64,000 nt of DNA. Source: Eledone cirrhosa. Lineage: Eukaryota. The stretch lies in contig OZ024760.1 in the NCBI GenBank assembly GCA_964016885.1, positions 20,708,001-20,772,000 of the forward strand. The letters run 5' to 3'. The translations under genes and the position numbers were made by a program. Shown here piece by piece: positions 12,261-27,300 of the stretch (the stretch's first letter is position 1; the number at the start of each line of letters is the position of its first letter). The notes below the pieces were generated by a model. It saw only the letters and a program-made list of their open reading frames with translations, did no database searches and was not told where the DNA came from.

Positions 12261-12375
12261 CTGGTGATCATCAGCAGATTCTTGAAGTTCTGGTTCATCA
12301 GTTTCTGGTAAATAGAGAGGATTGTTGATCTCATTGGCAGTCTCTTGGATGCGGATGTGTTTGAACTGTTGTAAC
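12261..12375 (-). CDS. LRP1: LRP1-like exon: cytoplasmic tail with NPxY ([38 protein letters not shown])
   Basis: FxHxR...EIxNPxY resembles the LRP1 proximal tail; CACAG acceptor in phase 2 matches the TM exon; GT donor at phase 0. Confidence 0.85.
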
Positions 12376-15300
12376 CTGTGAAGAGAGACAACAGTGCTAC
12401 TGGAGTTAACACAACAACAGATGTGAAGAGAGACAACAGTGCTACTGGAGTTGACACAGCTACATATGTGAAGAGAGATAACAGTGCTACTGGAGTTAAC
12501 ACAGCTACATATGTGAAGAGAGACAACAGTGCTACTGGAGTTAACACAACAACAGATGTGAAGAGAGACAACACTGCTACTGGAGTTAACACAGCTACAG
12601 ATGTGAAGAGAAATAACAGTGCCCCTGGAGTTAACACAGCTACAGATGTGAAGAGAGATAACAGTGCTACTGGAGTTAACACAGCTACAGATGTGAAGAG
12701 AGATAACAGTGCTACTGGAGTTAACAGAGCTACAGATGTGAAGAGAGATAACAGTGCTACTGGAGTTAACACAGCTACAGATGTGAAGAGAGACAACAGT
12801 GCTACTGGAGTTAACACAGCTACAGATGTGAAGAGAGATAACAGTGCTACTGGAGTTAACACAGCTACAGATGTGAAGAGAGACAACAGTGCCCCTGGAG
12901 TTAACACAACAACAGATGTGAAGAGAGACAACAGTGCTACTGGAGTTAACACAGCTACAGATGTGAAGAGAGACAACAGTGCTACTGGAGTTAACACAGC
13001 TACAGATGTGAAGAGAGACAACAGTGCTACTGGAGTTAACACAGCTACAGATGTGAAGAGAGATAACAGTGCTACTGGAGTTAACACAGCTACAGATGTG
13101 AAGAGAGACAACAGTGCCCCTGGAGTTAACACAACAACAGATGTGAAGAGAGACAACAGTGCTACTGGAGTTAACACAGCTACAGATGTGAAGAGAGATA
13201 ACAGTGCTACTGGAGTTAACACAGCTACAGATGTGAAGAGAGATAACAGTGCTACTGGAGTTAACACAGCTACAGATGTGAAGAGAGATAACAGTGCTAC
13301 TGGAGTTAACATAGCTACAGATGTGAAGAGAGATAACAGTGCTACTGGAGTTAACACAGCTACAGATGTGAAGAGAGATAACAGTGCTACTGGAGTTAAC
13401 ACAGCTACAGATGTGAAGAGAGACAACAGTGCTACTGGAGTTAACACAACAACAGATGTGAAGAGAGACAACACTGCTACTGGAGTTAACACAGCTACAG
13501 ATGTGAAGAGAGACAACAGTGCTACTGGAGTTAACACAACAACAGATGTGAAGAGAGACAACAGTGCTACTGGAGTTAACACAACAACAGATGTGAAGAG
13601 AGATAACAGTGCTACTGGAGTTAACACAGCTACAGATGTGAAGAGAGACAACAGTGCTACTGGAGTTAACACAGCTACAGATGTGAAGAGAGACAACAGT
13701 GCTACTGGAGTTAACACAGCTACAGATGTGAAGAGAGATAACAGTGCTACTGGAGTTAACACAGCTACAGATGTGAAGAGAGATAACAGTGCTACTGGAG
13801 TTAGCACAGCTACAGATGTGAAGAGAGACAACACTGCTACTGGAGTTAACACAGCTACAGATGTGAAGAGAGACAACAGTGCTACTGGAGTTAACACAGC
13901 TACAGATGTGAAGAGAGACAACAGTGCTACTGGAGTTAACACAGCTACAGATGTGAAGAGAGATAACAGTGCTACTGGAGTTAACACAACAACAGATGTG
14001 AAGAGAGATAACAGTGCTACTGGAGTTAACACAGCTACAGATGTGAAGAGAGACAACAGTGCTACTGGAGTTAACACAGCTACAGATGTGAAGAGAGATA
14101 ACAGTGCTACTGGAGTTAACACAACAACAGATGTGAAGAGAGATAACAGTGCTACTGGAGTTAACACAGCTACAGATGTGAAGAGAGACAACAGTGCCCC
14201 TGGAGTTAACACAGCTACAGATGTGAAGAGAGACAACACTGCTACTGGAGTTAACACAGCTACAGATGTGAAGAGAGACAACAGTGCTACTGGAGTTAAC
14301 ACAGCTACAGATGTGAAGAGAGACAACAGTGCTACTGGAGTTAACACAGCTACAGATGTGAAGAGAGACAACAGTGCTACTGGAGTTAACACAGCTACAG
14401 ATGTGAAGAGAGACAACAGTGCTACTGGAGTTAACACAGCTACAGATGTGAAGAGAGATAACAGTGCTACTGGAGTTAACACAACAACAGATGTGAAGAG
14501 AGATAACAGTGCTACTGGAGTTAACACAGCTACAGATGTGAAGAGAGACAACAGTGCTACTGGAGTTAACACAGCTACAGATGTGAAGAGAGACAACAGT
14601 GCTACTGGAGTTAACACAGCTACAGATGTGAAGAGAGACAACAGTGCTACTGGAGTTAACACAGCTACAGATGTGAAGAGAGACAACAGTGCTACTGGAG
14701 TTAACACAGCTACAGATGTGAAGAGAGATAACAGTGCTACTGGAGTTAACACAACAACAGATGTGAAGAGAGATAACAGTGCTACTGGAGTTAACACAGC
14801 TACAGATGTGAAGAGAGACAACAGTGCTACTGGAGTTAACACAGCTACAGATGTGAAGAGAGACAACAGTGCTACTGGAGTTAACACAGCTACAGATGTG
14901 AAGAGAGACAACAGTGCTACTGGAGTTAACACAGCTACAGATGTGAAGAGAGACAACAGTGCTACTGGAGTTAACACAGCTACAGATGTGAAGAGAGATA
15001 ACAGTGCTACTGGAGTTAACACAACAACAGATGTGAAGAGAGATAACAGTGCTACTGGAGTTAACACAGCTACAGATGTGAAGAGAGACAACAGTGCTAC
15101 TGGAGTTAACACAGCTACAGATGTGAAGAGAGACAACAGTGCTACTGGAGTTAACACAGCTACAGATGTGAAGAGAGACAACAGTGCTACTGGAGTTAAC
15201 ACAGCTACAGATGTGAAGAGAGACAACAGTGCTACTGGAGTTAACACAGCTACAGATGTGAAGAGAGACAACAGTGCTACTGGAGTTAACACAGCTACAG

Positions 15301-24300: not shown

Positions 24301-27300
24301 ATGTGAAGAGAGACAACAGTGCTACTGGAGTTAACACAGCTACAGATGTGAAGAGAGACAACACTGCTACTGGAGTTAACACAACAACAGATGTGAAGAG
24401 AGACAACAGTGCTACTGGAGTTAACACAGCTACAGATGTGAAGAGAGACAACAGTGCTACTGGAGTTAACAGAGCTACAGATGTGAAGAGAGACAACAGT
24501 GCCCCTGGAGTTAACACAGCTACAGATGTGAAGAGAGTCAACAGTGCTACTGGAGTTAACACAACAACAGATGTGAAGAGAGACAACAGTGCTACTGGAG
24601 TTAACACAGCTACAGATGTGAAGAGAGACAACACTGCTACTGGAGTTAACACAACAACAGATGTGAAGAGAGACAACAGTGCTACTGGAGTTAACACAGC
24701 TACAGATGTGAAGAGAGACAACACTGCTACTGGAGTTAACACAACAACAGATGTGAAGAGAGACAACAGTGCTACTGGAGTTAACACAGCTACAGATGTG
24801 AAGAGAGACAACAGTGCTACTGGAGTTAACACAACAACAGATGTGAAGAGAGACAACAGTGCTACTGGAGTTAACACAGCTACAGATGTGAAGAGAGACA
24901 ACACTGCTACTGGAGTTAACACAACAACAGATGTGAAGAGAGACAACAGTGCTACTGGAGTTAACACAGCTACAGATGTGAAGAGAGACAACAGTGCTAC
25001 TGGAGTTAACACAGCTACAGATGTGAAGAGAGACAACACTGCTACTGGAGTTAACACAGCTACAGATGTGAAGAGAGACAACAGTGCTACTGGAGTTAAC
25101 AGAGCTACAGATGTGAAGAGAGACAACAGTGCCCCTGGAGTTAACACAGCTACAGATGTGAAGAGAGTCAACAGTGCTACTGGAGTTAACACAACAACAG
25201 ATGTGAAGAGAGACAACAGTGCTACTGGAGTTAACACAGCTACAGATGTGAAGAGAGACAACACTGCTACTGGAGTTAACACAACAACAGATGTGAAGAG
25301 AGACAACAGTGCTACTGGAGTTAACACAGCTACAGATGTGAAGAGAGACAACAGTAGGCAATGAATGTGGAGCAATAGAAAAGTTTGGGGGAAACGGAAA
25401 TGGGCATAGCTCAGTGAGAATTGAATGGAGTACTTGCTTAGAGAGAGACAGACAAATAATGGATTGCAGAGGATGACAGAAATGTAATGAGATGGTTGGG
25501 TCATGTGTTGAGGTTGGATGGAAGCGACTGGATTCGTGGAATAGAGCCAGTGGTGAATGTTGTGAAGAGAAATGGAATGAGATGGTTGGGTAATGTGCTG
25601 AGGAAGGATGAAAGTGGGTCTGTGAGGAGTGATGGAAATGTAATGAGATGGTTGGGTCATGTGTTGAGTGACGGAAATGAATATGGGAGGAAGTAGAGGT
25701 AGGGAAAGAGCAAGAAAGACATGATTGATGCTGGATGAAATGAAAGTGAGTGGAGATACAGATAATAGGGCAAAAGGGTGCCATGAGGCGGGGCAGGGTT
25801 AACCCCTGATTTTGCAGGGAAAAAGAAATGTTGACTTACATGGGTCGTCGACGCCAGAGAATTAGTATTATCATGAAAATCACAACAATAAACACTGTCA
25901 ATGTAACACTGATGATGATGGTCGTGGCTGGAAATAGAAAAAATGAGAAAAATGTCTTAATATATTGATAAAATTGGAAGAATATATACTTATTTACATA
26001 CATACATATATCTATATTATAAAGCTGACGGCCATATGTATGTAACAAACTTTTCACCAAATAGCTGGACCAAACAGCACCAAATTTGCACCATAGATGT
26101 AACTTTTTCCAAGTAAGAAAGTGAGGGTATTTTTGTCTTCTAAATTTCGTTAAAAGATTAAAGATATTTTATCGTTTATTTAAATATTCACTTCCGGTTA
26201 TACGACATTCCCCTCTCTTTCTTAGTCTGTCTTTTTAGATAGATACATAGCTATAACGTTGCACCCTTATAATATGTCTCTGTATGTCTGGCTGTCTGCA
26301 TTAGATACATAACTATAATGTTGCACGCTTATAATATCTGTCGGTCTTCACGAACCAAAGTATCGTGTTCCTGTTTTCCTTCGGTTGCAACGTTTTTCGA
26401 AATATTTACTCCTGCGTCCACAGATTGATTTTTTGAGTTTCAGAAGATCCCATTAAGAGTAAAAGCAGCGGTTCTTTGCTTAAACTTTAATCTGTTATTT
26501 TAATATATATATATATATATATATATATATATAATTATATATTTGTGTACAGATATTTTTGCATACACAAAAACAAAATATAAACAAACGTATTTATTTC
26601 ACGAAACCACAGATGGCTTATCGTCATTGTTACTGCTGATATGCCACCCAAAAAATCCCAGCCTAGCTGCAAGATCAGATTTTCCAGAAGAAAAAAATGT
26701 TATTAGAGCAACAGAGAGACTAAGCTTCGTGATTACCATCAACAAAGCTAAGGGTCAAACCCTAAAAGAGGCTGGCCTTCATCTGGGAAAACCATGCTTC
26801 TACCATGGTCAATTGTATGTAGGATGCTCTAGGGTGAGCTCGCCAAACAATCTCTTCATCTTTGTTCCTGAGGGCCGAACAAAAAAATATTGTATACTCT
26901 GAGGCTCTAACAATGTAATTTATGTATTTTCTGTTACTTGGAATTTCTATTATGGTTGTACAAATTATTGTAAAGTTTGTTTAAAAATTTGTTCTCTGTT
27001 CAGCCTTTATTGTTGTAACTATCAATTTTCTTTAACATACTGGCTGCTGAATTGGGGAATCCTAAAAAAACTATTCAAACCCAACATCAGAGCACGTTAA
27101 CCCCCCCTCGCTGACTTGAGAAGGCGTGCGGTATCTTTGTACTGGAGTGGAGGGGGGAATCCTGAAAAGATAAAATGCCGGTATACCTAGCCGGGCACCA
27201 GCCGGACGGGCCAGCTAGTATAAAGAACGATCGACTTTCGTCAAATCGGACCGACGAAACAGTGTTTCCGTTGGTCTTTCCAATTGGTAATACTATCTAT

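Follow-up and report, generated by a model that had tools for sequence, protein, structure and literature searches.

The transmembrane-NPLY intron and its array

The window analysed here, a 64,000-nt stretch of the Eledone cirrhosa genome (assembly GCA_964016885.1, contig OZ024760.1, positions 20,708,001 to 20,772,000 of the forward strand), carries on its reverse strand part of the gene for an LRP1/LRP1B-like receptor. Our subject is a 45-nt minisatellite located in one intron of this gene, between the exon that encodes the transmembrane (TM) segment and the exon that encodes the NPxY motif (NPLY in this gene). Positions are those of the window unless a contig is named (C21 is the contig of the window), (-) denotes the reverse strand, and the intron with its two exons is made up as follows, in the direction of transcription.

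25840-25927 (-): TM exon of the LRP1/LRP1B-type receptor, 88 nt, ending in phase 2
25838-25839 (-): donor GT, which opens the 13,464-nt array-bearing intron
25356-25837 (-): 5′ part of the intron outside the array, about 480 nt, containing a piece of a dispersed repeat family
12377-25355 (-): minisatellite, locus-specific, with a unit made of 26 nt that carry the AGs plus the acceptor's 19-nt pyrimidine tract
12377-12556 (-): last four array units, none with an intact strong decoy acceptor
12376-12377 (-): authentic acceptor AG, its A being the final base of the array and its G lying outside the repeat
12261-12375 (-): NPLY (NPxY) exon, 115 nt, ending in phase 0; the TM-NPLY join is in phase 2

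Tandem-repeat measurement of the window gives the minisatellite a period of 45, 288.4 copies, 96% matches and 0% indels. When cut in register from the acceptor, it falls into 288 whole head-to-tail units of 22 distinct sequences, in addition to a 19-nt partial unit at its 5′ end, and the intron therefore reads as flank, tract, then 26 bases plus tract repeated 288 times, then G and the exon. Each unit ends in A, and the next base is T for all internal units and G only at the exon. The final base of the array is thus the A of the acceptor AG, so that the array abuts the splice site, and only its last copy, the sole unit followed by G, completes the real acceptor. Most copies continue from the tract into a decoy TAG, the intact tract-plus-TAG being present in 228 of the 288 units. 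The unusual property of the array is its length, which is 12,979 bases compared to 2,517 for the second-longest array of the gene (about 5 times as much).

All the upstream AGs of the array (823 of 823) are separated from the real acceptor by a distance divisible by 3, that is, they lie in its phase 2. A variant fourth AG, found in 35 units and absent from the list given in a preliminary description of this DNA, is also in phase. An open reading frame runs from the ATG at 25784 through the whole array and the NPLY exon to 12108, while plain retention of the intron meets a stop right after the donor. The preliminary description had reported a 13-kb array of 45-nt acceptor-type units between the TM and NPxY exons, a real acceptor in the last copy only, decoys in most copies, AGs in one phase, a stop-free frame into the NPLY exon and immediate termination upon retention, and all of these were recovered by our analysis. 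The 5′ part of the intron contains 9 AGs, of which 1 is in phase. As a query, it has 141 matches in the genome, nearly all of them to positions 76-300 or so of the query (about 25475-25700 in the window).

The main transcript appears to skip the array

Using a 561-nt exon of the host gene, we found four runs of a single study (X1 to X4), none of which is on record as RNA. They were compared with window positions 25270-26300 and with array units, in the form of assembled contigs, which drop rare variants and report the main form only. In X1, a 9,728-nt contig matches positions 25928-25838 only (9335-9425 of the record), with 0 mismatches and 0 gaps, and includes neither of the flanking introns. 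Contigs of X3 and X4 continue across the TM exon into the intron, and X2, X3 and X4 are DNA-like.

The one extra 5′ base of the X1 match is a G common to the end of the upstream exon and the end of the intron. The two extra 3′ bases are GT, and among the 833 AGs of the intron only the terminal one precedes GT. The remaining 303 nt of the contig correspond to 113 nt for the rest of the NPLY exon, 144 nt for the last coding exon and 46 nt that end in a microsatellite of the 3′ untranslated region (UTR). We infer from this agreement that the X1 contig is a spliced transcript. Because only the terminal AG is followed by GT and the length sum fits, the main form appears to join 25840 directly to 12375 and to skip the whole array, as this one contig strongly suggests. 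Repeats in the mature mRNA were not seen in the main form that the contig represents. Depth in X1 was 0 over the array units compared and over part of the intron, a part without cover; this is weak by itself and was not counted as absence. As an alternative to a coding role, the preliminary description had proposed that the units are decoys which the spliceosome has to skip, and a spliced contig that fits only the direct join speaks in favor of this proposal.

Choice of the last AG and interpretation of the array

We hold with good confidence that the array is a tolerated minisatellite which is specific to this locus, derives from the 45 bases at the 3′ end of the intron and is skipped by the main transcript. 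Rare, harmless slips in frame would be compatible with this reading. The spliceosome would likely pick the acceptor nearest to the next donor across the NPLY exon, i.e., by exon definition. In human data on long flanking introns, the sites closest across the exon are favored (PMC9225289). PMC10078293 provides general context only.

Several points weigh against this reading. Acceptors were scored with a rough matrix built on 57 acceptors of the host gene, partly picked by their pyrimidine content, after 4 of the 61 candidates had been dropped (3 doubtful ones and that of a 37-nt exon). The real acceptor scores 3.3, a value equalled or exceeded by 235 of the 832 upstream AGs of the intron. The idea that the decoys are weaker than the real site was consequently rejected on this rough matrix and, because 235 decoys score as well, sequence strength does not explain the choice of acceptor. 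Since the local sequence fails to single out the real site, skipping requires a positional mechanism, and for 3′ sites under exon definition PMC9225289 describes the upstream preference as only “significantly reduced”, upstream sites being preferred overall. The loss of strong decoys from the last four units could reflect selection at the exon end of the array. On the RNA side, the evidence is a single contig, whose run is not recorded as RNA, and the acceptor was identified from two letters and a length sum, not from reads on the acceptor side. As assembled contigs drop rare variants, minor forms that use array AGs are compatible with the data. Finally, a variable number tandem repeat (VNTR) of human ABCA7 is described as giving a minor isoform that retains one unit, together with length-dependent exon skipping (PMC5954066).

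The exon-proximal end of the array raises the question of whether the array, though untranslated, modifies splicing, its length or its nearest units altering the inclusion of the NPLY exon and selection having disarmed the four closest to it. The AGs in the last four units all score 3.0 or less, and only 2 of the 285 four-unit windows lack an intact strong decoy. Use of the nearest strong decoy would yield an exon of 334 nt, longer than 56 of the 58 rough exon lengths of the host gene, whose median is 114 nt and of which 2 of 58 exceed 300 nt. If the NPLY exon were skipped and the TM exon joined to the 37-nt exon, the frame would be kept but the NPLY motif lost; this hypothetical join is predicted from the sequence to be open in another frame. 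The ABCA7 VNTR provides a precedent (PMC5954066). However, the disarming pattern was spotted post hoc and is based on about 3 events, and the ends of such arrays are known to escape homogenisation (PMC3087553). Moreover, a 51-mer array in the Beclin-1 gene of the same genome has decoys equal to its real site at 102, 204 and 255 nt from it, and no form skipping the NPLY exon was seen in the assembled contigs of runs X1 to X4. A splicing modifier of this kind is therefore unlikely.

We also considered a latent extension of the exon, in which the nearest array AGs serve as acceptors in a minor fraction of transcripts, this fraction is set by allele length and the four proximal units have been disarmed by selection to keep it low. 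This appears quite improbable to us, as does its consequence that LRP1 would receive from 7 to at least 70 extra Cys/Ser-rich residues before NPxY. If it were true, octopod genomes, in which arrays of 10-15 kb grow at several splice junctions, would be caught in the act of making new coding sequence out of splice-site minisatellites.

As a very large splice-site minisatellite, the array is a useful natural experiment on how a 3′ splice site is chosen: the acceptor in use comes after hundreds of others that are in frame and just as good, and nonsense-mediated decay would not hide their use. It also carries a warning for annotation, as the 4,500-codon open frames found here are not exons.

Phase and open frame compared to chance

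The whole array is open in 3 of the 6 frames. In the frame of the exon, a stop is created by only 2 of the 135 possible single-base changes in the unit. The 17 unit changes seen comprise 6 silent, 11 replacement and 0 stop changes, compared to 30, 103 and 2 possible ones, respectively; these counts are small and show no clear excess. To set a chance level, the first 25 bases of the unit were shuffled 100,000 times with the tract held fixed. The frame was open in 68% of the shuffles, all AGs were in phase in 24%, and both applied in 20%; among shuffles with at least 3 AGs, the two were combined in 6%. The 157-kb span of the gene contains 71 arrays that cover 47 kb, and the period is divisible by 3 in 34 of the 71. 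Chance alone would have 0.26 arrays ending at any of 58 acceptors, compared to 1 seen.

The shared phase and open frame of the array are little above chance. Its in-phase, stop-free character is likely a coincidence of the 45-base unit, which may nevertheless render rare slips harmless. Nor is phase a property of the class, because both acceptor arrays of Beclin-1 have mixed phases (100/77/75 of 252 AGs in the 51-mer array and 24/16/16 of 56 in a 62-mer array).

The host gene and its tail

The host gene encodes LDL class A clusters, YWTD propellers, several EGF repeats, one TM segment and an NPxY tail, and its best match is LRP1/1B. A Pfam search on 11 of its exons gave 7 at or above the cut-off, 1 below it and 3 without a match. 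Apart from the exons on either side of the array, it includes the following parts.

27637-60975 (-): upstream exons of the same gene, encoding LDL class A repeats, EGF, a YWTD propeller and membrane-proximal EGF repeats
8569-8605 (-): 37-nt alternative exon; placed after the NPLY exon, it brings an early stop and hence a short tail
C21:20702435-20702578, left of the window: last coding exon, 47 codons, 17.7 kb past the NPLY exon and followed by a microsatellite-rich 3′ UTR

Among the 150 representative proteins listed, the best colinear match is an LRP1B-like protein of Argonauta hians (72% identity), followed by the LRP1 proteins of carp, tick and nemertean. The TM exon aligns to the TM segment of the Argonauta protein. 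A query for homologues of a YWTD exon, made in a set without full-length LRP1, returned distant relatives only, the best at 41% identity. The Octopus bimaculoides protein gave 67 colinear-looking segments with the host gene, at a mean identity of 83% when only segments of at least 70% are counted. The host gene thus corresponds to the octopod LRP1/LRP1B-like receptor (XP_052831949.1, XP_029649721.1, CAI9739404.1 and GAB1610066.1), with which it shares the same tail and the same short-tail isoform.

The Argonauta tail retrieved the LRP1B cluster of O. bimaculoides, whose 16 members come from O. bimaculoides, O. sinensis and O. vulgaris. Our orthologue set of 16 entries consists of the Argonauta protein and 15 listed members of this cluster; the entries are annotated, partly redundant and drawn from four species. 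The tail is carried by 15 of the 16 entries, and in 15 of these 15 the distance from the RRR stop-transfer to the QQF motif is three residues, which is also the spacing that results from a direct TM-NPLY join in E. cirrhosa. Five-residue words of the array peptide occur in 0 of the 16 entries. The annotated octopod proteins of this set are thus without the insert; the array is known here from the DNA of one species.

Octopod tails have one NPxY-like motif, which is in the NPLY exon, and a search of the 60 kb to the left of the window yielded no second NPxY exon. For the third O. bimaculoides tail, the matches here are to dispersed repeat copies only. Comparison of the sequences suggests that the conserved variation of the receptor tail stems from the 37-nt exon at 8605-8569 and not from the array; the short tail of this exon recurs in the annotated isoforms X4 of O. 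bimaculoides and X3 of O. sinensis, which makes it a conserved alternative splicing event.

These results bear on the proposal of the preliminary description that upstream AGs add Cys/Ser-rich 15-mers and give a tail of tunable length. If array AGs were used at meaningful levels, 7, 8, 22, 23, 28 or more Cys/Ser-rich residues would be inserted between the membrane and NPxY, tuning endocytosis or signalling, and the signalling tail of a conserved receptor would be acquiring coding sequence from a VNTR. In favor of the proposal are the 823 AGs in phase with an open frame, the 235 decoys that match the score of the real site, the nearest AGs, which would add 7 or 8 residues, and the existence of the one-unit-retaining isoform of ABCA7 (PMC5954066). 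Yet the direct join is the only one compatible with the spliced contig, with a depth of 0 in X1 over the array units compared (weak alone), and the insert is absent from all 15 tail-bearing orthologue entries, with a fixed spacing in four octopods. In addition, the phase and the open frame differ little from chance, there are more replacement than silent changes (11 to 6) without clear constraint at the protein level, and the conserved variation of the tail lies downstream. A length-tunable tail is consequently very unlikely. Overall, the interpretation given in the preliminary description is supported for the skipped decoys and not for the tunable tail.

Origin of the array

The 22-nt core of the unit (at most 1 mismatch) has 217 matches in the 3.0-Gb genome, the same number as within the array. 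With this pattern, the core was not found elsewhere in the genome, which does not point to an origin from a dispersed satellite or a transposon. Two other sources of the 26-nt part, a decayed copy of the exon start or of the 5′ flank, are not supported: 36% of 5,000 shuffles resemble the exon start as much as this part does, and 63% of shuffles do so for the 5′ flank. Our proposal is that a short duplication copied the pyrimidine tract of the last 45 bases of the intron, minus the final G, and that the array would then have grown by unequal exchange or slippage and be near-neutral. It contains nested internal duplications, one of 42 units at a 41-unit period and one of 24 units at a 22-unit period, and the mixes of unit variants differ from one region of the array to another. 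These features fit ordinary minisatellite turnover.

Long exact duplications such as that of 42 units could also be assembly errors, the assembler having inflated what in the animal would be a much shorter array. The summed contig depth per unit is 340, 612 and 528 in X2, X3 and X4, respectively, compared to about 5 on the exon in X3 and X4. Summed contig depth is not a copy number, and the runs come from one sample, possibly that of the assembly itself. The resulting ratios of about 100-130 are below 288, which could suggest inflation, but a unit depth this far above that of the exon argues against a much shorter array, as do the 22 unit variants arranged in nested, regionally different patterns. 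We therefore find an assembly artefact highly improbable.

Comparison with known systems and other arrays

The amphioxus “mirages” of Adh3 and of the globins BflGb6 and BflGb9 have units that span the exon-intron boundary and include exon sequence (PMC3087553). Like them, the LRP1 array is a minisatellite-like duplication at the end of an intron, many of its units carry AG signals, regular splicing is apparently undisturbed and the array ends differ from the interior. Unlike in these mirages, its unit has no exon sequence and stops one base before the authentic AG is complete, and it has 288 units compared to 3 and 6 in BflGb6. Intron-end duplication, cryptic signals and kept splicing (for the main form, in one contig) are thus found in the LRP1 array, and exon sequence is not: it works like the amphioxus mirages but is not a strict mirage.

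Similarly, the VNTR in intron 18 of human ABCA7 adjoins an exon and contains a splice signal, and it reaches 10.7 kb (about 427 units); its length polymorphism has been shown (PMC5954066). It differs from the LRP1 array by its position on the donor side, its 25-nt unit and its out-of-frame retention. The 37-bp VNTR in IVS7 of human F7 also has functional-looking pseudo-sites that are silent through position and not through sequence (PMC1557585). In F7 these are 5′ splice sites subject to oriented scanning, whereas the LRP1 array consists of 3′ sites and the one used is the last, nearest to the exon. Our literature search, which covered listings and the openings of abstracts and few subscription journals, brought up nothing about this array or about splice-site minisatellites in octopus.

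In the same genome, Beclin-1 has two acceptor arrays, at C20:7206575-7219121 (51-mer x 248) and 7227949-7231266 (62-mer x 53). With its acceptor at the site that keeps the frame, the 51-mer array is a true mirage by its anatomy. The notion that proximal disarming is a rule of the genome was rejected, as this array keeps equal-scoring decoys close to its exon. In both LRP1 and Beclin-1, the longest array sits at an acceptor, but both genes were chosen for that.

Repeats of the donor side were noticed in the host gene as well. At 58986-59280 (-), two copies of a 147-nt unit form a small true mirage on the donor side; the unit opens with the final 9 nt of an exon for an LDL class A repeat, together with the donor of this exon. 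A second donor-side mirage, at about C21 20874940-20876050 (-), consists of about 1.1 kb of repeats of an EGF exon end and its donor, and most of its copies have lost the full donor.

Further observations in the window

The intron that follows the NPLY exon is dense with unrelated minisatellites (29-, 12-, 47- and 30-mers), at 11817-12192, 10528-11515 and 9181-10174. The 29-mer contains CT tracts followed by CAG. Finally, a GC-rich intronic stretch at 44596-46881 (-), with open frames of 508 and 252 codons, looks like a retroelement insertion. This putative element is bounded by 34-nt direct repeats at 44464-44540 and 47173-47249.

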